Assembly: GCA_045594545.1 (NCBI GenBank)
Contig: JAZNYQ010000094.1
Coordinates: forward strand, 2,796-66,795
Source of the DNA: Eubacteriales bacterium
GTDB taxonomy: Bacteria; Bacillota; Clostridia; Oscillospirales; UMGS1783
Direction: 5' to 3'
DNA length: 64,000 nt
In this document: positions 17,220 through 64,000 of the stretch, piece after piece
Position numbering within the stretch: position 1 is the stretch's first letter
Layout of the letters: each line of letters begins with the position of its first letter
The notes under the pieces: model-generated
Database searches by the model: none
What the model saw: the letters and a program-made list of their open reading frames with translations, nothing else
Told to the model about the DNA's origin: nothing
Position numbers and translations under genes: made by a program

Positions 17220-17247
17220 AAAAATGCCCCTCCGAAATCGGAGGGGC
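17220..17247 (-). terminator. rho-independent terminator ending the hydrogenase operon
   Basis: GCCCCTCCG (17226-17234) pairs with CGGAGGGGC (17239-17247). On the minus strand it is followed by ATTTTTC. Confidence 0.75.
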
Positions 17248-17254
17248 GATTCTC

Positions 17255-19000
17255 TTAGTATTTTTCGCGTTTTACGTAGGTTGTATGCAAAATCTCATGT
17301 GCCTTATGGCTACCCGGCTTCTCCAGATACTCATCATAGATACGCTTCACATCGGGGTTCTCATGGGACTTTCTGACCGGCAGATTGCGGTCATCTTCAT
17401 ACAAGCCGGCGGCACGAGCGGCACGAATGTCGATCTCATTACGAACCGATGCAGGCTGTATCGGCTGACCGCCACCGTTGACGCAACCACCGGGGCAGGC
17501 CATGATCTCAATGAAATCATATTCCTTTTCACCCGACTGTACGCTATTGAGCAACGCACGGGCATTGGCCAGACCGGAGGCAACCGCTACACGGATCTTG
17601 TTACCGGCCAGCTCATAGGTGGCTTCCTTGATGCCTTCCACACCGCGAACATCCTCAAAGTCAAGTTTCTTGAGGGGCTCTTTGGTGACAACCTCAGCGG
17701 CGGTACGCAGAGCGGCTTCCATAACACCGCCGGTAGCGCCAAAGATGGTGCCGGCACCGGAACCAAGACCGAACGGAGCATCGAACTCACCGTCAGGCAG
17801 ATCATTGAAACGGATGCCGCACTTCTTGATCATACGGGCCAACTCACGAACGGTGAGAGCCACGTCGATATCATACAGACCTTCAACGGCCGTATTCTCG
17901 GTACGCTGAGCCTCAAACTTCTTAGCCGTACAAGGCATGATCGAAACGACAAAGATGTTCTTAGGATCAATACCCATCTTCTCAGCATAATAGGTCTTAG
18001 CCACCGAACCGAACATGCCCTGCGGCGACTTGCAAGAGGACAGGTTCTGAATCATGTCAGGGAAATAATACTCACAGAACTTGACCCAGCCGGGCGAGCA
18101 GGAAGTGATCAGCGGCAGATTCTCCTTCTTGGTGTAACGATCCAAGAACTCGGTAGCCTCTTCCATGATGGTCAGGTCAGCCGTAAAGTTGGTATCGAAC
18201 ACGCCGTCAAAGCCGAGCATCTTCAGAGCGGATACCATTTTACCGGTCACGATCGTGCCGATAGGCAGACCGAATTCTTCACCCAGACCCACGCGAACGG
18301 CGGGAGCGGTCTGAACAATGACATGCTTCTCGGGATCATTCAGAGCGGCAAATACCTTTTCGGTATCGTCACGCTCGGTCAGCGCGCCGGTCGGGCAGAC
18401 CGTGATACACTGGCCGCAAGCAATACAAGAGGTATCGCCCAGACCGCAATCAAACGGAGAGCCGATAACGGTAGCAAAACCACGCTCATTCGCACCGATA
18501 ACGGATACCGACTGCAACTTCTGGCAGGCGGCCACACAACGGCGGCAGAGGATGCACTTAGCGTTGTTGCGGATCATATGGATGGCGCTATCGTCGATTT
18601 CGGTAGCGGTCATCTCACCCTCAAAGCGGTTCTCCACATCCACACCGTACTCTTTGCACAGAGCCTGCAGTTCGCAGTTCTGCGAACGAACGCAGGACAG
18701 ACACTTCTTGTCGTGGTTGGACAGGATCAGTTCCAGCGTAGTGCGGCGAGCCTTGATAACCTTGGGGCTGTTGGTGATGACCTCCATACCCTCGTTTACG
18801 GGATATACGCAAGCAGCCACCAGGCTGCGAGCACCCTTGACCTCAACCATACACATACGGCAAGCGCCGATCTCATTGATGTCCTTTAAGTAGCACAGGG
18901 TCGGGATACTGACCCCGGCAATGCGAGCAGCCTCCAGAATGGTACTGCCCTTCGGCACGGAACATTCCACGCCGTTAATTTTAATTGTAACGTTTTCCAT
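17255..19000 (-). CDS. hydA: [FeFe]-hydrogenase catalytic subunit HydA (multimeric NAD/ferredoxin-linked type)
   Basis: N-terminal 2Fe-2S plus several 4Fe-4S Cys motifs. The H-cluster signatures are LITSCSPGW, MPCTAKKFE and EIMACPGGCVNGGGQP. Confidence 0.93.
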   Translation of the reverse strand: MENVTIKINGVECSVPKGSTILEAARIAGVSIPTLCYLKDINEIGACRMCMVEVKGARSLVAACVYPVNEGMEVITNSPKVIKARRTTLELILSNHDKKCLSCVRSQNCELQALCKEYGVDVENRFEGEMTATEIDDSAIHMIRNNAKCILCRRCVAACQKLQSVSVIGANERGFATVIGSPFDCGLGDTSCIACGQCITVCPTGALTERDDTEKVFAALNDPEKHVIVQTAPAVRVGLGEEFGLPIGTIVTGKMVSALKMLGFDGVFDTNFTADLTIMEEATEFLDRYTKKENLPLITSCSPGWVKFCEYYFPDMIQNLSSCKSPQGMFGSVAKTYYAEKMGIDPKNIFVVSIMPCTAKKFEAQRTENTAVEGLYDIDVALTVRELARMIKKCGIRFNDLPDGEFDAPFGLGSGAGTIFGATGGVMEAALRTAAEVVTKEPLKKLDFEDVRGVEGIKEATYELAGNKIRVAVASGLANARALLNSVQSGEKEYDFIEIMACPGGCVNGGGQPIQPASVRNEIDIRAARAAGLYEDDRNLPVRKSHENPDVKRIYDEYLEKPGSHKAHEILHTTYVKREKY

Positions 19001-19014
19001 GAATCTGTTCCTCC

Positions 19015-20832
19015 TTACTGCTTGCTGATAGCCTTGAACTTACAATGATCCATGCAGGCGCTGCACTTCACGCACTTGTCGGCAACGATCTCATAAGACG
19101 GAAGCTTATGGCCGGGAGCCACATAGTCAGTCTTAATGATGGTGTTAGCCGGGCAATTTCTGGCGCACATGCCGCAACCGATACATTTATCCTTGTCAAT
19201 CACAAAGGTCAACAGATCTTTACAAACACCGGCAGGACACTTCTTGTCCACCACGTGAGCTACATACTCATCGCGGAAGAACTTGAGGGTCGACAACACG
19301 GGGTTAGGAGCCGTCTGACCAAGGCCGCACAAGGAGTTTTCTTTAATGTAATAGCAGAGTTCTTCCAACTCGTCGATATCTTCCAGGGTACCGTTGCCCT
19401 TGGTGATCTTATCCAGCTTCTCATACAGACGCTTGGTACCGACACGGCAGGGCGTGCACTTACCGCAGGACTCGTCCACGGTAAACTCGAGGAAGAACTT
19501 GGCCATATCTACCATACAGGTATCTTCGTCCATAACGATCAAGCCGCCCGAACCCATCATACAGCCGATAGCCGTGAGGTTATCGTAGTCAACGGGGGTG
19601 TCGATCAGGCTGGCCGGGATACAACCGCCGGAAGGACCGCCGGTCTGGGCCGCCTTGAACTTCTTGCCGTTGGGGATACCGCCGCCGATGTCCTCGATGA
19701 TCTCACGAAGCGGAGTGCCCATCGGGATCTCAACCAGACCGGTATGCTCGATCTTACCACCCAAAGCAAATACCTTAGTGCCCTTGGACTTCTCGGTACC
19801 CATCGAAGCAAACCAATCGGCGCCACGCAGAATAATCTGAGGCACGTTAGCAAAGGTTTCCACGTTGTTTTCAACAGTCGGCTTGCCCCACAGCCCCTTA
19901 ACGGCCGGATAAGGCGGACGGGGACGAGGCTCGCCACGCTTACCTTCGATCGAAGTCATCAGCGCCGTTTCTTCGCCGCAGACGAAAGCACCGGCACCCA
20001 GACGGATGAACAGATCGAAATCAAAGCCGGAACCGAAAATATTCTTGCCCAGCAGTCCATATTCACGAGCCTGCTCGATCGCCATCTGCAAACGGGCAAC
20101 GGCAATCGGATACTCGGCACGAACATAGACATAACCCTCGGTAGCACCGATGGCGTAACCGGCAATGGTCATGGCTTCGATCAGACAATGGGGGTCACCC
20201 TCCAATACCGAACGGTCCATAAATGCACCGGGGTCGCCCTCGTCAGCGTTACAAACAACATACTTCTGATCGGCCTGATTGGGAGCAGTCAGCGCCCACT
20301 TGCGACCGGTCGGGAAACCGCCGCCGCCACGGCCACGAAGACCGGACTTGGTAATCTCATCAATAACATCCTGAGGCTTCATCTCAGTAAGTACTTTGCC
20401 CAGAGCGGCATAGCCATCCATGACAATATACTCGTCAATACTCTCAGGGTTGATCACACCGCAGTTACGAAGAACCACACGGTTCTGGCTCTTATAGAAA
20501 GCGGTATCGTTAAGAGATACATTGCCTTCCACAGGCGCATCCGAGCCGGTATCGTTGTACACCAAACGATCGACCACACGGCCCTTAAGAAGATGCTCGG
20601 AAACAATTTCTTCTACGTCTTCGGGGGTTACGCGGCTGTAGAAGGTGCCATCGGGATGAACGATAACTACAGGACCCAAAGCGCACAGACCGAAACAACC
20701 GGTCTGAACAACCTTGACTTCATCCTGCAAACCGTTGGCTTCGATGGACTTAGCAAATACATCCTGAATTTTTACGCTGCCCGAGGAGGTACAACCGGTA
20801 CCGCCGCAGATCAGTACATGAGCACGAATCAT
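19015..20832 (-). CDS. hydB: NuoF-like flavoprotein subunit HydB (NADH-binding, FMN, Fe-S)
   Basis: Thioredoxin-like 2Fe-2S N-terminus (CGGTGC...CFGLC), GRGGGGFPTGRKW, SCGKCTPCR, and a C-terminal double CxxCxxCxxxCP. Confidence 0.93.
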   Translation of the reverse strand: MIRAHVLICGGTGCTSSGSVKIQDVFAKSIEANGLQDEVKVVQTGCFGLCALGPVVIVHPDGTFYSRVTPEDVEEIVSEHLLKGRVVDRLVYNDTGSDAPVEGNVSLNDTAFYKSQNRVVLRNCGVINPESIDEYIVMDGYAALGKVLTEMKPQDVIDEITKSGLRGRGGGGFPTGRKWALTAPNQADQKYVVCNADEGDPGAFMDRSVLEGDPHCLIEAMTIAGYAIGATEGYVYVRAEYPIAVARLQMAIEQAREYGLLGKNIFGSGFDFDLFIRLGAGAFVCGEETALMTSIEGKRGEPRPRPPYPAVKGLWGKPTVENNVETFANVPQIILRGADWFASMGTEKSKGTKVFALGGKIEHTGLVEIPMGTPLREIIEDIGGGIPNGKKFKAAQTGGPSGGCIPASLIDTPVDYDNLTAIGCMMGSGGLIVMDEDTCMVDMAKFFLEFTVDESCGKCTPCRVGTKRLYEKLDKITKGNGTLEDIDELEELCYYIKENSLCGLGQTAPNPVLSTLKFFRDEYVAHVVDKKCPAGVCKDLLTFVIDKDKCIGCGMCARNCPANTIIKTDYVAPGHKLPSYEIVADKCVKCSACMDHCKFKAISKQ

Positions 20833-20856: not shown

Positions 20857-21228
20857 TTATGCTTTGTAATTGCCGATGGTAAATTCCGCAACCGGCTTGC
20901 CACCCTTGAGATGCTCCTCAACCACACGGGCGACCTTGTCGGCTGTCATTTTCACATAAGTAACCTTTTCCTGACCGGCCTCGAACACTTCAACAACCGG
21001 CTCAAACTGGCAGATACCGATGCAACCGGTCTGGGTCACAGTGATCTGACCGGCCAAGCCCTGATTGTTCACCTGCTCAACAAAAGCAGACAGGACGGGG
21101 CGGGCGCCGGCGGCAATACCGCAGGTAGCCATGCCGACAACGACACGCTTCTCACCGCTGCCTTCACGCAGGGCGACTTTGTTCTGCATTTTTTCCTTGA
21201 TTGCCTGGAGTTCTTCTAATGATTTCAT
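20857..21228 (-). CDS. thioredoxin-like [2Fe-2S] ferredoxin domain protein
   Basis: VVGMATCGIAAGA...QTGCIGICQFEP. The start is the ATG at 21228 (MKSLEEL), after AAAGGA. Confidence 0.8.
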   Translation of the reverse strand: MKSLEELQAIKEKMQNKVALREGSGEKRVVVGMATCGIAAGARPVLSAFVEQVNNQGLAGQITVTQTGCIGICQFEPVVEVFEAGQEKVTYVKMTADKVARVVEEHLKGGKPVAEFTIGNYKA

Positions 21229-21266: not shown

Positions 21267-21827
21267 TCAGGCCGTTTCCCAAGACTCATAAGCCTCAAGA
21301 AGCGAACCTTGAATCCATTGTAATACCTCAAAACTATTAAGAGGTACCTCACCCAACACGTCGCGCAACACGCGTGTGTCAAGTTCAACCGCTTCCCTTC
21401 CCGCACATTCATGTCGGAAAAGAAAATCGGTATCGGGATGTCCTTGAATCAGCGTCACCATCGTTCCGACCACATCCCCCAGCGGCGGGCAGTCAATGTG
21501 CGTATGATAAAATACCGCTTTTACCGTTGTACCGTGTTCTTGAGGATATTGTGCTTGATCCTTAGATGCCACCGTTACCGTACCACCGGTCATTTCCGCT
21601 TCCAGTTTCAACAATGGCAATCCCAAACCAACGGGACGGGTCGTTCGTGTTGTATAAAAGGGATCAGTTACCCGACTTACCGTCTGGGCATCCATACCGC
21701 AACCGTCATCCCGAATGGTAATGGTCAGCCTTTCCTCGGTCTGATCCAGCAGGATCTCGGTTAATGACGCGCCCGCTTTCACGGAATTTTCTGCAATATC
21801 CAAGATGTTGAGTGATAATTCTTTCAT
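21267..21827 (-). CDS. histidine-kinase-like ATPase (HATPase_c) domain protein without a DHp or receiver domain
   Basis: N-box NILDIAENSVKAG, G1 RDDGCGM and G2 GLGLPLL. The C-terminal ~90 aa are unassigned. Its ATGA overlaps the PHP gene. Confidence 0.7.
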   Translation of the reverse strand: MKELSLNILDIAENSVKAGASLTEILLDQTEERLTITIRDDGCGMDAQTVSRVTDPFYTTRTTRPVGLGLPLLKLEAEMTGGTVTVASKDQAQYPQEHGTTVKAVFYHTHIDCPPLGDVVGTMVTLIQGHPDTDFLFRHECAGREAVELDTRVLRDVLGEVPLNSFEVLQWIQGSLLEAYESWETA

Positions 21828-22558
21828 CGTCCCCTCCTCAGATATTCAATCAGATTTTTCCGAACCAGCGCGCTGCTGTACGGTTCATCGTCCAGCTCCA
21901 CGTAACCGTCCTTCTCCTTGATGTCCCACAAATAGTGCGCATCACTGCACGAGACCGCCACGCACCTGTCAAGCACATGGGCTTGTCGGTATTCCTCCTC
22001 CTTGGTTCCATCGTGGAATTCCACGCAGGTAAACTCAGGAAAGGTCGGGACCGTACCCAGGATGGATATGATGCCATTGGCTTCCCGATCAATATGCGCC
22101 GGATAGCACACACCGCCGAAATGCTCAACCAAGCCGGGGGCCTCTTCGAGCGAAACGGTAGTGGCGTTACTGAGCAGATCCGGATCTTCACCGATGATCT
22201 CGTCGTTTTCATCCATGATCCATTGCTCACCGAAAATATCCGTTCGGTTGGCGATCCGAATCCGACGTTTGTTGATCTCCTCATCGAACGCCATCGCCGC
22301 TTCCAATGTCGGAAACAGGCAGACCATGTGAATATCTTCCGCCGTCGTCAGTTCCATGCCGGGAATCGGGATAATCCCGTGCTTGCGTGCCGCTTTGAAA
22401 AAGGCAGGACAGTTTCGGCAGGTATTATGATCGGTCAATGCCATGATCTGCAATCCGTTAAGCACTCCCATACCCACCAAATTGTTCGGTGTGTTTTCAT
22501 TATCTCCGCAAGGAGACAGACAGGAATGAACGTGCAGATCGTAATAGTAGCGGTTCAT
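21824..22558 (-). CDS. PHP-domain metal-dependent phosphoesterase
   Basis: YYDLHVHSCLSPCGD...ALTDHNT is the PHP His/Asp motif pattern. Confidence 0.8.
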   Translation of the reverse strand: MNRYYYDLHVHSCLSPCGDNENTPNNLVGMGVLNGLQIMALTDHNTCRNCPAFFKAARKHGIIPIPGMELTTAEDIHMVCLFPTLEAAMAFDEEINKRRIRIANRTDIFGEQWIMDENDEIIGEDPDLLSNATTVSLEEAPGLVEHFGGVCYPAHIDREANGIISILGTVPTFPEFTCVEFHDGTKEEEYRQAHVLDRCVAVSCSDAHYLWDIKEKDGYVELDDEPYSSALVRKNLIEYLRRGR

Positions 22559-22881
22559 AGGTTCTGCGCCAGCATCAGCGCCGTCTCATAGGCACTGCGC
22601 TCGCTTACCAGAATATTGATTCCCTTAGCACTCGCTAACGCCTCAACCCCATCATCCGGCATAACGTTTTCTGCCAGAATAATACAGGCCGTATCCGCCA
22701 GCGTAGCCACCGCCACGATGTTGTTGTTGGACATGATGGTGATCCAAGCTTGATCGGCTTGCGCACGCCCCATGACCCAACTGAGAAGATCGCCGATGTA
22801 GACACCGGTTATCTCACGCTCACCGTCGGGAAGTGCGACTGCCTTCAAATTGGTCTTTTGTATCAATTCGTTAACGGTCAC
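22555..22881 (-). CDS. DRTGG-domain protein
   Basis: About 108 aa, ...DLLSWVMGRAQADQAWITIMSNNNIVAVATLADTACIILAENV..., resembling the other DRTGG-like protein at 24613-24975. I prefer the GTG at 22881, after GGAGGAG. The ORF-track start at 22923 would overlap the upstream gene by 53 nt. Confidence 0.65.
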   Translation of the reverse strand: MTVNELIQKTNLKAVALPDGEREITGVYIGDLLSWVMGRAQADQAWITIMSNNNIVAVATLADTACIILAENVMPDDGVEALASAKGINILVSERSAYETALMLAQNL

Positions 22882-24160
22882 CTTGCTCCTCCTTCTGTGT
22901 GAGATATTGCTGTAACTTCTCACGCATGGTCAGTACACAATCGCTCATCTTGGCGGTTCCCCTCACCACATCCTCGGCAAACGCACGACAAGTCGGTGCA
23001 CCGCAAGAGCCGCAATCCAACCCCGGCAACTGATTGCGCAAAGACTGGATATCGGCCAGCATACGCATGGACTTGGCCATGTTGTCGCTGAGCTGACTGA
23101 TCGGCTGATACTCCGGTAATTCATCACAGAAATATTCTTCCGGAATATACTGCTGTTCAGGGGGAAGGAAGTTGCAGGATACCGGCATAAATCGCCGAAG
23201 TGCCTGCAAACGAGCTTTGGCAATGAATGGGTTTTGCACCGTCATGACTCCGCCCACGCAACCGCCGGTGCAGGCGTTGAGTTCCACAAACTCTACCTGC
23301 GGAATGTTTCCGTTCTCGATCTGATCCAGAACACGGATGACATTCTCGATCCCGTCCGCCGCCAGATAATTGTCATTAAACAGCGCTGTTGACTCACCGC
23401 CGGAAGATGCCCAGCCGATTCCCATCATCCCCGACGAGGACAGGTCATCGATCTGGTCGGTGTATTTCATTTCATTGATCAACTGAAAATAGATATCGCT
23501 GATCGAAACCACCGCATCCACCTGACTCTTGTATTCTCCAAATCCGTTTTTTACATAACTGGCTTTGGCCGGACAGGGAGAAATAAAACAAACTCCGATT
23601 TCCTCGGGCTTAAACTCCGGATGCTCCTTCAAAGCCTTTTCCCGTGCCAGCTTCGCCGCCATTTCCATGGGGGGAAGCATATGTAACACGTTATCCTGCA
23701 AGGAAGGAAACCGAAGCGAGATCAGTCGGACAACCACCGGACACGCTGAACTGATGACCGGCTTTTTTACCCCTTCTGTATTGAGATACAGCCGAGTATA
23801 GGCCGAGACCATTTCTGCCGCCTTGGATACCTCGTACACATCGTCAAACCCGATGCGTAACAGTCCGTTAAGCACATAGTCTACATCATCCAAATTGTCA
23901 AACTGACCGTAAAGACTGGGCGCCGGTAAGGCAATCTTCCATTTGAAAGCATCCATAGCGTCCAGTTTGCTGCATACCGCCTTTTTTGCTTTTTGTGGGC
24001 AGGTGCGGATACACTCGCCGCAATCAATGCAGCGCCCCTCGTTAATCACGGCCCGACCCTCTCGGATTCGGATCGCTTCGGTGGGGCAATGCCGCAGGCA
24101 GGTGGTGCAGCCGGTACACTTATGTGTGTCCAGAAACACGGAATGCTCATATGTATGCAT
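22871..24160 (-). CDS. HydA-like Fe-S protein: 2x[4Fe-4S] ferredoxin domain, hydrogenase large-subunit-like domain and C-terminal Cys-rich domain (putative sensor, probably non-catalytic)
   Basis: The N-terminus has CTGCTTCLRHCP and CIDCGECIRTCP. H-cluster-aligned segments read SSACPVV, SPCPAKASY and ELNACTGGCVGG. The C-terminus has LDCGSCGAPTCRAF. The ATG at 24160 follows AGGTAGG. Confidence 0.8.
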   Translation of the reverse strand: MHTYEHSVFLDTHKCTGCTTCLRHCPTEAIRIREGRAVINEGRCIDCGECIRTCPQKAKKAVCSKLDAMDAFKWKIALPAPSLYGQFDNLDDVDYVLNGLLRIGFDDVYEVSKAAEMVSAYTRLYLNTEGVKKPVISSACPVVVRLISLRFPSLQDNVLHMLPPMEMAAKLAREKALKEHPEFKPEEIGVCFISPCPAKASYVKNGFGEYKSQVDAVVSISDIYFQLINEMKYTDQIDDLSSSGMMGIGWASSGGESTALFNDNYLAADGIENVIRVLDQIENGNIPQVEFVELNACTGGCVGGVMTVQNPFIAKARLQALRRFMPVSCNFLPPEQQYIPEEYFCDELPEYQPISQLSDNMAKSMRMLADIQSLRNQLPGLDCGSCGAPTCRAFAEDVVRGTAKMSDCVLTMREKLQQYLTQKEEQGDR

Positions 24161-24190: not shown

Positions 24191-24616
24191 TTATTCCAGA
24201 TTGACACGCATGGTAATGCGTGTTCCCTTTCCAACCTCCGATTCGATCTCCATATGATCGGTATATCGCTTCATGTTCGGCAGACCCATGCCGGCGCCAA
24301 AACCAAGCGATCGAATGTTATCAGGTGCCGTGGAGAATCCGGCCTGCATGGCTTGATCGATATCGGCAATACCGGGACCTTTATCTTCCAGTATGATCTC
24401 AATGGCCTCTTCATTGACCCGAACCTCGGCATGACCGCCACCGGCATGAATGACCATATTGATCTCACCCTCATACATCGCAATAGACACCCGACGGATC
24501 ATCTCCGGCGGAAGCCCTAATTGCCGCAGATTCTTTTTGATCTGCACCGATGCCTGACCGGCCGAAGTGAAATTCTCACCATCGACATCAAAGTGAAAGA
24601 CCAGCCCTTCACTCAT
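24191..24616 (-). CDS. small HATPase-type protein (SpoIIAB/RsbW-like anti-sigma/serine-kinase fold)
   Basis: 141 aa. The sequence AMYEGEINMVIHAGGG...LEDKGPGIADIDQAMQAGFST...GFGAGMGLPNMKR fits the GHKL ATPase N, G1 and G2 boxes. Confidence 0.7.
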   Translation of the reverse strand: MSEGLVFHFDVDGENFTSAGQASVQIKKNLRQLGLPPEMIRRVSIAMYEGEINMVIHAGGGHAEVRVNEEAIEIILEDKGPGIADIDQAMQAGFSTAPDNIRSLGFGAGMGLPNMKRYTDHMEIESEVGKGTRITMRVNLE

Positions 24617-24975
24617 GACTGCACCCTCTTGACCTTGTTACCGACAAGGCCGTTGCTGTAAAGAATACCGCAGGCTTCATACATGCGTTTCTTTGTGGCC
24701 AACACCACAATGCCGCACTCCTGAGCCAAGCGCACCATTTCCGGCGTCGGCTCCTTGGCACGGACAAATACGATACAACGCATGTCCATCATTTCAGCCG
24801 TGCGAATCACCTGTGCATTGACAAGCCCCGTCAGCAATACCGCCTGATCCTTGACATACGCCAAAACATCACTCATCATATCGCTGCCGCAAGCCGAATA
24901 CACATGATCGCCCAACCGATCCTCGCCCGAGATCACACGGGCTTCCAGAAGTTCCTGTATTGTACAGATCTTCAT
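24613..24975 (-). CDS. DRTGG-domain protein
   Basis: 120 aa, ...MMSDVLAYVKDQAVLLTGLVNAQVIRTAEMMDMRCIVFVRAKEP... Its ATGA overlaps the downstream ATPase gene. Confidence 0.65.
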   Translation of the reverse strand: MKICTIQELLEARVISGEDRLGDHVYSACGSDMMSDVLAYVKDQAVLLTGLVNAQVIRTAEMMDMRCIVFVRAKEPTPEMVRLAQECGIVVLATKKRMYEACGILYSNGLVGNKVKRVQS

Positions 24976-24990
24976 ACAGTCGTCATCCTC

Positions 24991-25488
24991 TTAGTCGGCG
25001 TATTTAGCCAGAATGTCATCCACATCATCAACCGTCAAACGGCCGTAAACTTCACCGTTGATGGTCAGAACCGGAGCCAGACCGCAGGCACCGATGCAAC
25101 GGCAGGCAACCAGAGAGAATTTTCCGTCCGGCGTGCATTCCCCGTTGGCAATGCCCAGTCTTTCGCTCAGGCGATTAAAGATATCGCCGGATCCCTTAAC
25201 ATAACAGGCCGTACCCAAGCAAACCGAGATCTCGTATTTGCCCTTGGGCTGAGTCGAGAAGAAAGAGTAGAAGGTAACTACCCCATATACCTCTTCCAGC
25301 GACACATCCAGTCCCTCTGCAACAGCAATCTGTACTTCCAAAGGCAGATATCCGTAAATATCCTGCGCCTTCTTCAGCACCTGAACCAGAGCACCGGGAA
25401 CTTCCTTGTAGTCCGCCAGTATCTGGTTGAGCTGATTGCGCTTTTCAGGACTGTCCTGAAAAGGGATCGATTCGTACTTGTTTTTCAT
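24991..25488 (-). CDS. hydC: NuoE-like [2Fe-2S] subunit HydC
   Basis: LQKAQDIYGYLP...SVCLGTACYVKG...LVACRCIGACGLAPV is the NuoE/HoxE family pattern. It is the first gene of the operon. Confidence 0.9.
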   Translation of the reverse strand: MKNKYESIPFQDSPEKRNQLNQILADYKEVPGALVQVLKKAQDIYGYLPLEVQIAVAEGLDVSLEEVYGVVTFYSFFSTQPKGKYEISVCLGTACYVKGSGDIFNRLSERLGIANGECTPDGKFSLVACRCIGACGLAPVLTINGEVYGRLTVDDVDDILAKYAD

Positions 25489-25574: not shown

Positions 25575-25603
25575 AGTATATATTATTTTTATTTATTTGT
25601 AAA
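25575..25603 (-). promoter_or_regulatory. promoter of the hydrogenase operon
   Basis: On the minus strand: TTTACA (25603-25598), 17 nt, TATACT (25580-25575), in an AT-rich UP-like context. Confidence 0.5.
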
Positions 25604-29429: not shown

Positions 29430-29893
29430 CTCTTTTTACAAACATCCACCCACCCTAACGGCTTAGCCAACAGCTCCAACTCCATAAGAGATAACTCAAT
29501 GGCACTGTTGCCGCTTCCGCAAGCGGGAAACACCGTTTCAAACCGACGAAGCGATTCATCCAAATACACCGCCACGCCCTCATTGACCGCAAACGGACAC
29601 ACTCCGCCTACCGCATGACCGATCAGCGTTTCGGCCTGTTCGTACGACAGCATCTTCGCTTTGCAATGAAATGTAGCCTTATACTTGGGATTGTCGATCT
29701 TGACATCACCCGCCGTCACGATCAAAATCGGTCCGGACTCCGTCATAAAAGAAAGCGTTTTGGCGATCCTACATTCCTCGCATCCCAGCGCCTGTGCCGC
29801 CAAGGCGACCGTCGCGCTGGATACATCAAACTCTATGATACGATCTGAAAATCCTTGCGTTGCAAAATATCCCCGTACCTTTTCAATGGACAT
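29414..29893 (-). CDS. YbaK/ProX-type aminoacyl-tRNA editing domain protein
   Basis: KTLSFMTESGPILIVTAGDVKID and GHAVGGVCPFAV. The start is the ATG at 29893, after GGAGG. Confidence 0.8.
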   Translation of the reverse strand: MSIEKVRGYFATQGFSDRIIEFDVSSATVALAAQALGCEECRIAKTLSFMTESGPILIVTAGDVKIDNPKYKATFHCKAKMLSYEQAETLIGHAVGGVCPFAVNEGVAVYLDESLRRFETVFPACGSGNSAIELSLMELELLAKPLGWVDVCKKREDLV

Positions 29894-30554
29894 GATTGCC
29901 TCCAAAATTCACTTTGAATGTACTGCGATCAAAATCGATCAACCCGTCTTTTTTCATGCGCGACAACTCCGCCGACATGGCCGACCGATCCACCGACAGA
30001 TAATCTGCCAACTCCTGCCGATCAAACGGAATGGTAAAAATACGAGTCCCCGCCAAATTTGCCTGCTCACTGAGGTAGGATAAGAGTTTCTCCCTTGTCG
30101 TACGGCAGGACAAATGCTCAATTTTTCTGGTCAACCCCATGTTCTTATTAGCCAAAACCGTCAATAAATTTTCAATCAAATGCCGATGACAGGAGCATAC
30201 TTTTGCACAAGGACTGGATATGCGCCATCCGGCTAAAAAAACCACTACCGTTTTCTCGCCGGCCACATACCCGATCTCGGACGGCATATTGCCATGGAAC
30301 ACGGCACTCTCACCAAAGACCATTCCCGATCGATACACTTCTAATATATTACGGACCCCGCGATAGTCGTCCCGCACCATCCATACCGTTCCCGACACCA
30401 CCACACCAAGAGCTGAAGGCATCGCTCCCGGTTTCATAATATACTCATCCGCATCATATTCCCGACTCGTCGCCTGCAGACATCCCAACATATGCTCGAT
30501 GTTATCCGTACCGGCAAACAAGTCAAAATCCTGTAATTGATGTGCTAAATTCAT
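29883..30554 (-). CDS. Crp/Fnr-family transcriptional regulator
   Basis: N-terminal cNMP-binding-like beta-barrel (VWMVRDDYRGVRNILEVYRSGMVFGE) and C-terminal HTH (FDRQELADYLSVDRSAMSAELSRMKKDGLI). Confidence 0.85.
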   Translation of the reverse strand: MNLAHQLQDFDLFAGTDNIEHMLGCLQATSREYDADEYIMKPGAMPSALGVVVSGTVWMVRDDYRGVRNILEVYRSGMVFGESAVFHGNMPSEIGYVAGEKTVVVFLAGWRISSPCAKVCSCHRHLIENLLTVLANKNMGLTRKIEHLSCRTTREKLLSYLSEQANLAGTRIFTIPFDRQELADYLSVDRSAMSAELSRMKKDGLIDFDRSTFKVNFGGNHVH

Positions 30555-56707: not shown

Positions 56708-57652
56708 TTACACCACCTTTATCGCCCATTGATCGCAGACACGACTGCAATACCCGCAGAGCACGCATTTGTCATTCGGAACGGCTTTACCGTTTACGAT
56801 GTCGATACCGTGATTGACGCAACGAGCCGCGCAGGCGCCGCAACCGACACACCAATCGTCGATATGTAGCTGCCGTTTTTTCTGCTGTAGGGCATTTAAA
56901 TTTTTCTCAGAGAAGGCGCCCTGTTCCATAAATTCGATATTGGCATCGATCTCATCGATCGACTGCATCCCGATACATACGCTATGTTTATAGGGAAAAG
57001 AAAAGGCGTATTGCAGACTTTCCTGCGCTGAGGCAAACAAATTACCGCCACCGAGCGGCTTCATGGTATAGATGCCTTTTCCTGCTTCATAGGCCATTTT
57101 CAGCGCCTGCTCCATATCTTCGCGCCTTCCGTCTACAATGCCGAGTCCTGCCCTATTGATCAGGGGATGGATGACATCGATATAATCGGCGTGAGCCGCG
57201 GCACGCACCCCCGCCACATGGTGAGTCGAGATACCAAAAGCACGAATAACGCCCTGTGCTTTCAGCCGCAACAGCTCTTCGATGGCGGGCATATGGCCGC
57301 GCAAGGTGTGTTCACTCTCCTGTTCATGGAGCATGAAGATATCGATCACATCCCGATCGAGCCGTTGTCTGGCCTCTTCCACCGCATCAAAGGCCATCTG
57401 TTTTTCATAGGCATAGGATTTACTGGCGATGATAAGGGGGCTTTTCATCTTCTTTTCGGCGATTTTTATATATTCATAGTTGTCATAGAGTTGGGCGGTA
57501 TCGAGCAGATTGACCCCACGCTCGGCGGCATAGCACAGCACCTCGGCCGCCGCCTCGGGAGGCAGATTAGCCTGCATGGGTGCCATGGTAAGCGATCCAA
57601 ACGCAAGGGTTGACACCTGCATTCCGGTATTACCCAAGGACACATATTTCAT
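56708..57652 (-). CDS. aldo/keto reductase fused to a C-terminal 2x[4Fe-4S] ferredoxin domain
   Basis: MKYVSLGNTGMQVSTLAFG...DTAQLYDNYE is AKR-like. The C-terminus has CVGCGACAARC...CVLCGYCSRVC. Confidence 0.85.
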   Translation of the reverse strand: MKYVSLGNTGMQVSTLAFGSLTMAPMQANLPPEAAAEVLCYAAERGVNLLDTAQLYDNYEYIKIAEKKMKSPLIIASKSYAYEKQMAFDAVEEARQRLDRDVIDIFMLHEQESEHTLRGHMPAIEELLRLKAQGVIRAFGISTHHVAGVRAAAHADYIDVIHPLINRAGLGIVDGRREDMEQALKMAYEAGKGIYTMKPLGGGNLFASAQESLQYAFSFPYKHSVCIGMQSIDEIDANIEFMEQGAFSEKNLNALQQKKRQLHIDDWCVGCGACAARCVNHGIDIVNGKAVPNDKCVLCGYCSRVCDQWAIKVV

Positions 57653-57663
57653 AAAACACCTAT

Positions 57664-57699
57664 ACTAAAAACCTCAAAACCGCATGGTTTTGAGGTTTT
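57664..57699 (-). terminator. rho-independent terminator after ireB
   Basis: A 14-bp stem, AAAACCTCAAAACC (57668-57681) against GGTTTTGAGGTTTT (57686-57699). Confidence 0.75.
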
Positions 57700-62538: not shown

Positions 62539-63714
62539 TTATCCTTTTATTCGCCGCACCGTTTTGATGGCCTTCACAGGGCACATCTCCTGACAACAGA
62601 AACAGGAAATACAAGCATGCAGATCGATCGATGCCTTTTTATCAGTAATGACGATGGTATGCTGAGGACAGCTCTCGGCACACTTACCGCAACCGATACA
62701 GGTTCTTTTCTTAATCTTCGGCTGAGCGACCAGTGCCCGATCCAAAAAAGAGCGTATAGGGGCACGAAGGGATTTAGGAAAAATACTGACAAAATCTACA
62801 CTGACCGATTTCGGCAATACAAAGCCGTGTTCGGGGCGCGTCCACGCCCCCACAATCTCGCTTTCTTCCATCAGCCCACAGGCAGCTACCAGCATCGGTA
62901 CATGAGAAGCACCCACCTGCAGGATCTCATCGGCACAGAAGCGATCTAAACTATAGATATTGCGAGAAGCTATGGTCAACCCCGGATGGCAGATCTCGCC
63001 GCCGGCCGGACCGTCTCCCTCCATGGCATCCACCGCATCGATGATGGTGTAGGTAGGCGCCACGACCTGCGACAGTTCCACCAACATGGCGGCAAAGGAT
63101 TCGGGGTCGGGGTTTAGGCAATGCAGTTCGGGCTTTTGCAGTCCCGGAACAACACCAAACAAATTCTTGACCGCGCCGGACATGACCGTCATGCTATGAG
63201 TCTTTAATTTAGGAAGATTGATAATAATATCCGCCTCAAGAACGGGCGTTATTATGTTAAAGGCACGAAAACCCTCTTTATGTACTCTCTCATAAGAGCA
63301 GTTCTCATTAAGGGTATATCCTTTCCCCGTCATGCCGCAAGCGGCATAGATGGCACGCATCATGGCGGGCGTATACAGCCCACCCGAACTGTCGGCCAGG
63401 GTAATATCGGTAATGCCTTTGTTATGCAGATAGCGCACCACGGCATCTACTACATGCGGATGAGTGGTAATCCCCTTGGCGGGAGAAGCCCCCCGTAGGA
63501 GATTAGGCTTAATAAGCACCTTTTTATTCGGCGTCAGTTCCTCGTCACCCATGGCGTGAAAATGGGCCCAAACTGCACGGTCAAGCGAATCGGCATCGTA
63601 GGATGTATGAATACAGGATATACGGTTCAGAAGAATCACCTCGCCGCTCAGTATATCATATTCCCTTTCAGAAATCAAACCCCTCCCGCATTTTTTCGAT
63701 AGCACGCTTTTCAA
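62539..63714 (-). CDS. DUF362-domain protein with a C-terminal 2x[4Fe-4S] ferredoxin domain
   Basis: KKVLIKPNLL...TDITLADSSG is the DUF362 pattern. The C-terminus has CIGCGKCAESCP...CISCFCCQEMCP. The start is uncertain. The ORF-track start is TTG at 63714, which overlaps sigK by 47 nt. GTG at 63639 is an alternative. Confidence 0.8.
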   Translation of the reverse strand: MKSVLSKKCGRGLISEREYDILSGEVILLNRISCIHTSYDADSLDRAVWAHFHAMGDEELTPNKKVLIKPNLLRGASPAKGITTHPHVVDAVVRYLHNKGITDITLADSSGGLYTPAMMRAIYAACGMTGKGYTLNENCSYERVHKEGFRAFNIITPVLEADIIINLPKLKTHSMTVMSGAVKNLFGVVPGLQKPELHCLNPDPESFAAMLVELSQVVAPTYTIIDAVDAMEGDGPAGGEICHPGLTIASRNIYSLDRFCADEILQVGASHVPMLVAACGLMEESEIVGAWTRPEHGFVLPKSVSVDFVSIFPKSLRAPIRSFLDRALVAQPKIKKRTCIGCGKCAESCPQHTIVITDKKASIDLHACISCFCCQEMCPVKAIKTVRRIKG

Positions 63715-64000
63715 TGCGGGAGATATAGGAACGGGAGATGCCTAGAATTTTGGCAGTTTCTTGCTGAGAGCGAGGCGGTTTATTATCCAAGCCGTAACGC
63801 AACAGCAATACCTTTTGTTCCCGTTCATCCAAACCTCGCAAAAGGGTCATCATTCTCTCAATATTGATCTTTTTTTCCAGATTTTCCGCAATATTATCTT
63901 CCCCCACAATGATATCGACCAAGGTCAGTTCATTCCCTTCTTTGTCGGTGTCAATCACATCATTGATCGATTTGTCGCCGGCACTTTTCTTTTGGGAGCG
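63668..64000 (-). CDS. sigK: sporulation sigma factor, SigK-like (C-terminal part; gene continues past window end)
   Basis: The frame is open to the window edge. The sequence ...DKSINDVIDTDKEGNELTLVDII...LDEREQKVLLLRYGL...QQETAKILGISRSYISRIEKRAIEKM matches the SigK DKEGNE(I/L)(S/T)L(I/V)D segment and region 4.2. Confidence 0.75.
   Translation of the reverse strand, partial: RSQKKSAGDKSINDVIDTDKEGNELTLVDIIVGEDNIAENLEKKINIERMMTLLRGLDEREQKVLLLRYGLDNKPPRSQQETAKILGISRSYISRIEKRAIEKMREGFDF

Follow-up and report, generated by a model that had tools for sequence, protein, structure and literature searches.

What does a protein that keeps the cluster-binding cysteines of an [FeFe] hydrogenase do inside the operon of another, catalytic hydrogenase? 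The question is raised by a gene, here called HydS, at positions 22871–24160 (minus strand) of a 64,000-nucleotide stretch of the genome of a Eubacteriales bacterium (Oscillospirales; NCBI GenBank assembly GCA_045594545.1, contig JAZNYQ010000094.1, positions 2,796 to 66,795 of the forward strand), which we refer to as the window. HydS shares an operon with the main NADH-linked enzyme that produces H2. The way in which such organisms sense the H2 partial pressure decides whether H2, ethanol, formate or reduced acids are made, and this in turn feeds methanogens and acetogens. Judged by its sequence, HydS is an ordinary member of group D (M2e) of the [FeFe] hydrogenases, a published and partly characterised class, and not a new kind of protein; what the locus adds is the cassette of partner genes around it. 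We consider it reasonably probable that HydS is the slow, high-affinity H2-sensing input of this self-contained signalling cassette, and not a bulk producer of H2.

Family membership of HydS

The open reading frame described in an earlier note on this DNA is real: it encodes 429 residues on the minus strand, as do all genes and domains of the window given below, with an ATG start at 24160 and a TAA stop at 22871–22873, and every HydS motif quoted in that note was located in the translation. The N-terminal F-domain (residues 8–58, positions 23987–24139; Fer4/Fer4_10 matches) holds two ferredoxin-type Cx2Cx2Cx3CP [4Fe-4S] motifs, CTGCTTCLRHCP (residues 15–26) and CIDCGECIRTCP (residues 44–55), with eight cysteines, C15/18/21/25 and C44/47/50/54. 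Across 45 diverse family members C15, C21, C25, C44, C47, C50 and C54 never vary, and C18 hardly does. The H-domain (residues 76–304, positions 23249–23935; PF02906 Fe_hyd_lg_C, E 1.9e-30) is divergent, since it scores 107 bits against the Pfam model, compared with 341 bits for the neighbouring HydA. Its L1, L2 and L3 segments, SSACPVV (residues 137–143), SPCPAKASY (residues 194–202) and ELNACTGGCVGGVMT (residues 293–307), align with those of HydA in the multiple alignment, and the H-cluster cysteines are retained as had been claimed: C140/C196/C297/C301 fall in the CpI C300/C355/C499/C503 columns, and 37/37 members have all four. A C-terminal Cx2Cx4Cx16C [4Fe-4S] domain of the type found at the RnfB N-terminus (PF04060 FeS, residues 378–409, positions 22934–23029, E 7e-15) includes the segment LDCGSCGAPTCRAF (residues 381–394) and the cysteines C383-x2-C386-x4-C391-x16-C408, which are invariant across family members. 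The chain ends 21 residues past the last of these, and Pfam finds no PAS domain (none at E<0.01), kinase or phosphatase domain in it, in agreement with the earlier view that HydS has no output domain of its own. A pseudogene or decaying paralogue was considered and ruled out, because more than 8000 close homologues have the same architecture, a number well past anything chance would give, and the ligands are invariant.

Although HydS had been left unplaced, its clade was already named in the literature (PMC3561251), with biochemistry available since 2019. That 2012 genome survey gives such genes as 'D M2e' sensory hydrogenases, among them Cthe_0335, TTE0887, Athe_1292 and Csac_1857, which lie upstream of bifurcating enzymes, with protein kinases close by. 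M2e or group D proteins have since been described as having two N-terminal [4Fe-4S] motifs, an H-domain and a C-terminal Cx2Cx4Cx16C motif without PAS, as lacking the proton-relay cysteine, and as often sharing an operon with a group A hydrogenase (PMC8163306). The setting of HydS, with a trimeric bifurcating hydrogenase and kinase-like genes, fits both descriptions. The characterised member of the group is TamHydS from Thermoanaerobacter mathranii (PMC6984386, PMC8163306, PMC10407848, PMC13104023), a 435-residue protein that we rebuilt from the codon-optimised gene in the supplement of PMC13104023. The source text was damaged by optical character recognition, with insertions and deletions, and was read by frameshift-tolerant dynamic-programming alignment; a few residues near errors are uncertain, while the numbering of the rebuilt protein fits the published residues C20, R30, R32, A137, E252, E289, C379 and D403/C404. 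Compared along the full length, with 421 positions aligned, HydS and the rebuilt protein share 48.7% identity.

The earlier statement that HydS lacks catalytic hallmarks stands in part. The group A hallmarks, namely the relay cysteine of TSCCP and the methionines of MPC and ExMxC, are replaced by A139 (CpI C299, TamHydS A137), S194 (CpI M353) and N295 (CpI M497), while K199 (CpI K358), P81-S82 (CpI P231-S232) and a complete alternative proton path, E256/E293/S253/D269, are kept. In CpI, K358 and P231-S232 are in contact with the cyanides that ligate the [2Fe] subsite. The alternative path corresponds to E252/E289/S249/D265 of TamHydS, which were identified as specific to group D (PMC10407848), and the E252 column is I/V/L in our group A, B and C references. 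Similarly, the CpI M353 column holds Ser or Thr in 34/37 group D proteins, Gly in groups B and C and Met in group A. R31/R33, published as residues of the interface where the N-terminal and C-terminal domains meet, and D382/E396/D397/D407, matching the charged residues D378/E392/D393/D403 around the C-terminal cluster of TamHydS, are also present (PMC13104023). With this cofactor-binding signature intact, HydS most likely assembles a genuine H-cluster and three accessory [4Fe-4S] clusters.

The assignment draws on the reading frame, its translation, Pfam, the identity to TamHydS, a predicted structure and a phylogeny. A neighbour-joining tree (45 taxa, 301 core columns, 1000 bootstraps) unites HydS and TamHydS with 33 diverse representatives of the family and a homologue from Parabacteroides in a single clade at 100% bootstrap; the group C, B and A references form separate clades (99.6%, 97% and 100%). 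The comparison with groups A to D that the earlier note had proposed sets the protein beside a characterised hydrogenase and apart from groups A, B and C. Group A was represented by the window HydA and a Cetobacterium enzyme; group B by a B. finegoldii hydrogenase, encoded beside hydEGF, and R. albus HydA2, both exceeding the TIGR04105 cutoff; and group C by R. albus 7 HydS and its Monoglobus and Acetoanaerobium homologues, all three with a C-terminal extension of ∼165 residues, in which the Monoglobus protein gives weak PAS matches. The R. albus 7 protein is encoded among Rex, adhE, a kinase, two 2Fe-2S ferredoxins, a SpoIIE phosphatase and HydA2. HydS fails the group A model TIGR02512 (84 bits, cutoff 406) and the group B model TIGR04105 (156 bits, cutoff 450), on which the genuine group B references reach 542–577 bits. 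Nor is it a group C (M2f) protein: it is without PAS, has Ser and not Gly at the CpI M353 position and falls outside the group C clade. An AlphaFold2 model built with 45 diverse family sequences (mean predicted local distance difference test score 93.9, predicted template modelling score 0.91) resembles solved [FeFe] hydrogenases at template modelling scores of about 0.6–0.68 and ∼20% identity. Foldseek matches for this model were DdH, CbA5H, CpI and HydABC, with no group C or D structure among them.

The partner cassette

HydS comes fourth in a row of ten tightly packed genes that run in one direction, and the neighbours named earlier (two DRTGG proteins, two HATPase_c proteins and a PHP protein, then NuoE/NuoF-type subunits and a group A HydA) were borne out by Pfam and NCBIfam. 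A promoter-like site (25575–25603) lies upstream of the first gene, hydC, which encodes a HydC/NuoE-type [2Fe-2S] subunit (24991–25488; PF01257, E 1.7e-51). It is followed by DRTGG1, a 120-residue DRTGG-domain protein (24613–24975; PF07085), by HATP1, a 141-residue SpoIIAB-like GHKL ATPase and putative Ser kinase (24191–24616; HATPase_c, HATPase_c_2), and by HydS. Downstream of HydS are DRTGG2, a DRTGG-domain protein of ∼108 residues (22555–22881; PF07085), a PHP-domain phosphoesterase of 244 residues (21824–22558; PF02811), HATP2, a 186-residue GHKL ATPase with a conserved C-terminal extension (21267–21827; HATPase_c/HATPase_c_3), and a small thioredoxin-like [2Fe-2S] ferredoxin of 123 residues (20857–21228; PF01257, NF041612). 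The last two genes encode a HydB/NuoF-type NADH-FMN subunit (19015–20832; Complex1_51K, NADH_4Fe-4S, TIGR01959) and the catalytic HydA, a group A enzyme of the NADH-dependent/bifurcating type (17255–19000; NF040763, 907 bits, cutoff 765; 735 bits against A. woodii HydA1, 7q4v). Directly after the hydA stop, a terminator-like hairpin (17226–17247, minus strand; 9-bp stem with 8 GC pairs, T-run) closes the operon. Since the probable GTG start of DRTGG2, behind AAGGAGGAG, lies within the last 11 nt of the HydS gene (an 11-nt overlap), translational coupling of the two is suggested.

The same arrangement is found in other genomes. Among the anaerobes of gut, rumen and fermenters, group D hydrogenases are widespread. 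When species-representative genomes were scanned with a single peptide pattern, at least 599 species-level genomes with relatives matched. We examined the best 80 of these at least 599 (54–93% HydS identity), all of them gut or rumen Oscillospirales metagenome-assembled genomes (MAGs; Acutalibacteraceae, Ruminococcaceae). The order HydC>DRTGG1>HATP1>HydS>DRTGG2>PHP>HATP2>Fdx>HydB>HydA recurs in essentially all 80, wherever the locus is long enough. At seven loci the block DRTGG1-HATP1-HydS-DRTGG2-PHP stands in front of hydC and not behind it; because it relocates intact, it behaves as a unit. Distant members (31–46% HydS identity) were then sampled and screened with profile hidden Markov models built from the 80 loci, and strong scores were again obtained for most or all of the seven components, also at 31–35% HydS identity. 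No locus long enough to include DRTGG1 is without an orthologue of it, HATP2 accompanies the cassette even beside Rnf or V-ATPase genes, and a small ferredoxin orthologue follows HATP2 in distant loci without HydA.

What stands beside the cassette varies among these distant loci. The neighbours are NuoE/NuoF with a molybdopterin Fdh-like subunit (locus L083), NuoE/NuoF with no HydA nearby (L087), rnfCDGEAB (L088/L089), NuoEF with a polyferredoxin, FlpD and a [NiFe] small subunit (L091), or a NuoF-GltD fusion with HydA (L099). In L100 the cassette lies between a V-ATPase operon and glycogen genes, in Parabacteroides distasonis (L093) nothing adjoins it, and L081 has a reduced CheW-DRTGG-ATPase-HydS form. 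Where an adjacent partner complex is present, it usually includes a Complex1_51K NADH/FMN protein (HydB, NuoF or RnfC).

Long family members were scanned with Pfam for fusions, and fused forms were checked across assemblies. Of the clusters at 50% identity, five (P0135, P0148, P0226, P0216, P0234) have HydS joined to a C-terminal DRTGG2-type domain, two (P0143, P0277) have it joined to an N-terminal DRTGG1-type domain and one has it joined to an N-terminal HATP1-type ATPase (fused forms P0152/P0284). Cluster representatives may be the longest members, and assembly artefacts were therefore considered as a source of such proteins; they were rejected, because each fused form recurs full-length in several independent assemblies and sources. 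These sources include 'bacterium 210820-DFI.6.37' (MCB6993385.1), named as a strain and not a MAG, and contigs of up to 347 kb. Because natural fusions recur, they point to a direct partnership of HydS with the DRTGG proteins and HATP1.

The partners themselves appear competent at the level of motifs. The N, G1 and G2 ATP-binding boxes of HATP1 and HATP2 are kept across about 80 orthologues, and the metal-binding PHP motifs DLHxHS, ALTDHN, GMELTT..DIH, PAHIDR and SDAH are kept in 82. In DRTGG1, the residues S35, T49 and T59 are invariant. The nearest entries in the PDB are SpoIIAB for HATP1 (1til/1l0o/1th8, E about 2e-8) and histidine-kinase CA domains for HATP2; the sequence search returned only the structural-genomics protein 2ioj for DRTGG1 and a marginal nuclease match for PHP. 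Our literature searches (DRTGG with hydrogenase; anti-sigma or serine kinase with sensory hydrogenase) found no published work on these partner proteins, and the interaction partners of TamHydS were stated to be unknown in 2026 (PMC13104023). The conserved cassette and the fusions single out both DRTGG proteins and the SpoIIAB-like ATPase as concrete candidates, which makes the signalling question directly testable.

Several of the distant loci carry further features. The full seven-component cassette of L088/L089 (NCBI GCA_900167185.1; Logan contig) lies directly upstream of rnfCDGEAB with no adjacent hydrogenase, which suggests a link of group D proteins to Rnf in some lineages; the cassette ATPase there is fused to CBS. 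The HATP1 orthologues of L083 and L088 have an N-terminal CBS pair, and CBS together with DRTGG forms the regulatory insert of CBS-pyrophosphatases; by analogy, the pair hints at an adenine-nucleotide input. In L081/L082 a reduced DRTGG-ATPase-HydS trio directly follows cheW, near GGDEF proteins and away from hydrogenases, and a link to chemotaxis or cyclic di-GMP signalling is possible. The Bacteroidota locus L093 (NZ_OY725779.1, 77–80 kb) is a stand-alone set of six genes encoding DRTGG, ATPase, HydS-like, DRTGG, PHP and ATPase proteins; its sequence record, labelled a plasmid, is probably a chromosome fragment, since it carries gyrA and clpB-like genes.

Within the window, L1 of HydA (residues about 296–302) reads ITSCSPGW, Cys-Ser and not Cys-Cys, and an ungapped alignment puts this Ser in the column of the CpI C300 ligand. 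HydA1 of the active bifurcating HydABC of A. woodii (7q4v) also reads ITSCSPGW, while T. kivui HydA1 and CpI read TSCCP. A Crp/FNR-family regulator (cNMP_binding and HTH_Crp_2; 29883–30554) lies 4.4 kb upstream of the hyd operon, in a separate transcription unit beyond two ABC exporter genes, and the reading frames at 56711–57664 and 62542–63741 give weak matches to ferredoxin-like parts of HydS/HydB.

Sensor, catalyst or scaffold

TamHydS incorporates [2Fe]adt and turns over H2 reversibly but slowly, with raised H2 affinity, CO tolerance, a stabilised reduced state (Hred) and unusual reactivity towards CO and O2 (PMC8163306). Its specific activity, ∼0.1 µmol H2 per mg per min, is orders of magnitude under that of catalytic enzymes (PMC10407848), and H2 induces changes in its secondary structure (PMC13104023). 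From such properties the TamHydS authors proposed a sensory role (PMC8163306, PMC10407848). 'Sensor' is thus the current hypothesis of the field, and for HydS it appears reasonable but unproven.

In the mechanism that we infer, which covers H2 sensing, phosphorylation chemistry and output target, HydS would react with H2 slowly and with high affinity; a slow reaction is expected because the fast proton relay of group A is replaced by a Glu-based path. HydS would form a complex with HATP1 and the two DRTGG proteins, and its H2-dependent state would be passed on by direct contact, controlling ATP-dependent phosphorylation or binding inside the complex. The PHP phosphoesterase would reset the signalled state, and HATP2 and the small 2Fe-2S ferredoxin would form the output side, towards NADH/ferredoxin-linked energy metabolism. 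In the Eubacteriales host, where the cassette sits inside the operon of the electron-bifurcating HydABC, the system would presumably tune that enzyme. The earlier suggestion of a sensor whose signal is read in trans is therefore retained as the leading hypothesis, backed by conserved synteny and by the natural fusions with DRTGG and ATPase neighbours.

Several points weigh against this mechanism. To our knowledge, in vivo H2 sensing by a group D protein has been shown by no experiment, and genes that are neighbours or fused reveal partners, but neither which way a signal would run nor what kind of signal it would be. HATP1 scores 68 bits against the SpoIIAB model TIGR01925, under the cutoff of 135. 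Pfam and NCBIfam find no DNA-binding, sigma factor, STAS, receiver or DHp/His-phosphotransfer domain in the cassette, and neither the operon nor related loci yielded a STAS antagonist, PP2C phosphatase or cognate sigma factor; the places of the STAS antagonist and PP2C are taken by DRTGG and PHP proteins, and the cassette lacks features that define classical partner switching. The Glu of the alternative path is E/Q in 27/37 members and in 100/116 of a wider set, and since neither it (E256 in HydS) nor the residue at the C299 position is universal, group D members may differ in chemistry. H2 does not reduce the C-terminal cluster of TamHydS, and mutation there barely alters activity (PMC13104023), for which reason a simple redox relay through the C-terminal domain is unlikely. 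Lastly, a 2024 survey still counts group D as functionally undefined (PMC11216029).

A different account makes HydS a slow but physiologically catalytic hydrogenase, for example a high-affinity H2 uptake enzyme or a safety valve, with electrons passing to the small ferredoxin and NuoE/NuoF, and with the ATPase, DRTGG and PHP proteins regulating or maturing it. The reversible interconversion of H+ and H2 by TamHydS, the constant presence of the 2Fe-2S ferredoxin in the cassette and the L087 operon, which has NuoE and NuoF with no other H-cluster protein nearby, are all in line with such a role. We nonetheless regard it as unlikely: the measured turnover of TamHydS is very low, the set also occurs beside Rnf or V-ATPase/glycogen genes, or alone in Parabacteroides, without an adjacent electron-accepting flavoprotein, and GHKL ATPase and DRTGG fusions typify signalling proteins and not redox enzymes. 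The clusters of HydS could also sense a cue other than H2, such as the ferredoxin/NADH redox state, CO or O2, and act on the same output partners. For a generic redox sensor it would be odd to keep the full H-cluster ligand set and a dedicated proton path, which are costly and need HydEFG, and the raised H2 affinity (PMC8163306) and H2-induced structural change of TamHydS (PMC13104023) speak for H2 itself. We consider such a cue decidedly improbable, even though the cassette adjoins various NADH/ferredoxin-linked complexes and not only hydrogenases, CBS domains on some HATP1 members suggest a metabolite input and the CO and O2 reactivity of TamHydS is unusual.

The earlier note had called HydS probably non-H2-evolving and had likened it to the Nar1/NARF scaffolds. 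A non-catalytic Fe-S protein of that kind would hold only [4Fe-4S] clusters and no [2Fe] subsite, a reading that the Ala-Cys in L1 (SSACP) and the loss of both pocket methionines could support. TamHydS, however, carries the same SSACP motif, takes up the [2Fe] subsite and turns over H2 (PMC8163306), which makes Nar1/NARF the wrong comparison and the expectation of no H2 chemistry hard to keep. Since the family also has its own proton path, since HydS groups with TamHydS at 100% bootstrap and since K199 and P81-S82 match the [2Fe]-ligand contacts of CpI, a scaffold is highly improbable.

Returning to the H2-sensing reading, we would extend it only tentatively. The seven-component set might be a so far undescribed, portable H2-responsive signalling machine in which HydS is complexed with the ATPase and DRTGG proteins, DRTGG taking the part of STAS and PHP that of PP2C, and in which the output is post-translational, on HydABC, Rnf or NuoEF-Fdh, and not through a transcription factor. 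This extension we hold to be doubtful.

Comparison with known systems

HydS resembles TamHydS most closely. The domain order is the same, the lengths are similar (435 residues in TamHydS, 429 in HydS), and the L1 (KKPVISSACPxVVRL), L2 (FISPCxAK) and C-terminal (LPGLDCGSCGxPTCRAxAED) segments are near-identical. The two proteins also have the same residues in the alternative proton path and the same charged residues near the C-terminal cluster, and each gene is accompanied by those of a bifurcating HydABC and of a histidine-kinase-like ATPase. They differ in that the CpI M497 position is Asn in HydS and Leu in TamHydS, and in that E122/K126 of TamHydS, remnants of the group A proton path, are Leu124/Thr128 in HydS. 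In addition, the HydS gene sits within the hydCBA operon, its host is a mesophilic gut/rumen Oscillospirales bacterium where that of TamHydS is a thermophile, and TamHydS has been measured biochemically while HydS is known here from sequence.

The group C proteins (T. maritima HydS, R. albus HydS, Thermoanaerobacterium HfsB) share the N-terminal 2x[4Fe-4S] region, the H-domain and the same C-terminal Cx2Cx4Cx16C, have low activity and a proposed H2-sensing role, and have genes that accompany those of a target hydrogenase, a kinase and a phosphatase. In contrast to HydS, they have their own C-terminal PAS region of ∼165 residues, Gly at the CpI M353 position, where group D has Ser/Thr, and Ile in the E256 column. 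In place of the DRTGG, SpoIIAB-like ATPase and PHP proteins they are partnered by an APH-type kinase and a SpoIIE/PP2C phosphatase, and they form a separate clade (99.6% bootstrap) with 27–30% core identity to HydS. The T. maritima enzyme is reported to have Ala at the C299 position (PMC10407848), while the R. albus (L092) and Monoglobus (L094) proteins retain Cys in this column, so loss of the relay cysteine is not universal in group C.

Nar1 and NARF share with HydS a hydrogenase-like fold, retained cluster cysteines and a lost proton-relay cysteine. They are eukaryotic factors of cytosolic Fe-S assembly without a [2Fe] subsite, whereas HydS belongs to a bacterial clade with a [2Fe]-binding, H2-activating member; the distinction is drawn indirectly, through the grouping of HydS with TamHydS in the tree. 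SpoIIAB/SpoIIAA/SpoIIE and RsbW/RsbV/RsbU are partner-switching modules, and they resemble the cassette in that a small single-domain GHKL ATPase (HATP1, with SpoIIAB as its nearest solved relative) shares its locus with small alpha/beta-domain proteins and a phosphatase. The cassette differs from them in having DRTGG for the STAS antagonist and PHP for PP2C, with no sigma factor in or near it, and in that HATP1 stays under the SpoIIAB model cutoff.

Finally, the [NiFe] regulatory hydrogenase HoxBC of Cupriavidus necator, which acts with HoxJ/HoxA, is a slow, inhibitor-tolerant hydrogenase that is bound to a kinase-type partner and reports H2 to control metabolic hydrogenases. Its metal centre and fold are unrelated to those of HydS, and HoxJ, a histidine kinase with PAS, is paired with a response regulator, whereas the HydS cassette is without PAS, DHp and receiver domains. 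The likeness between the two is one of function, a parallel that the TamHydS authors have also drawn (PMC8163306).

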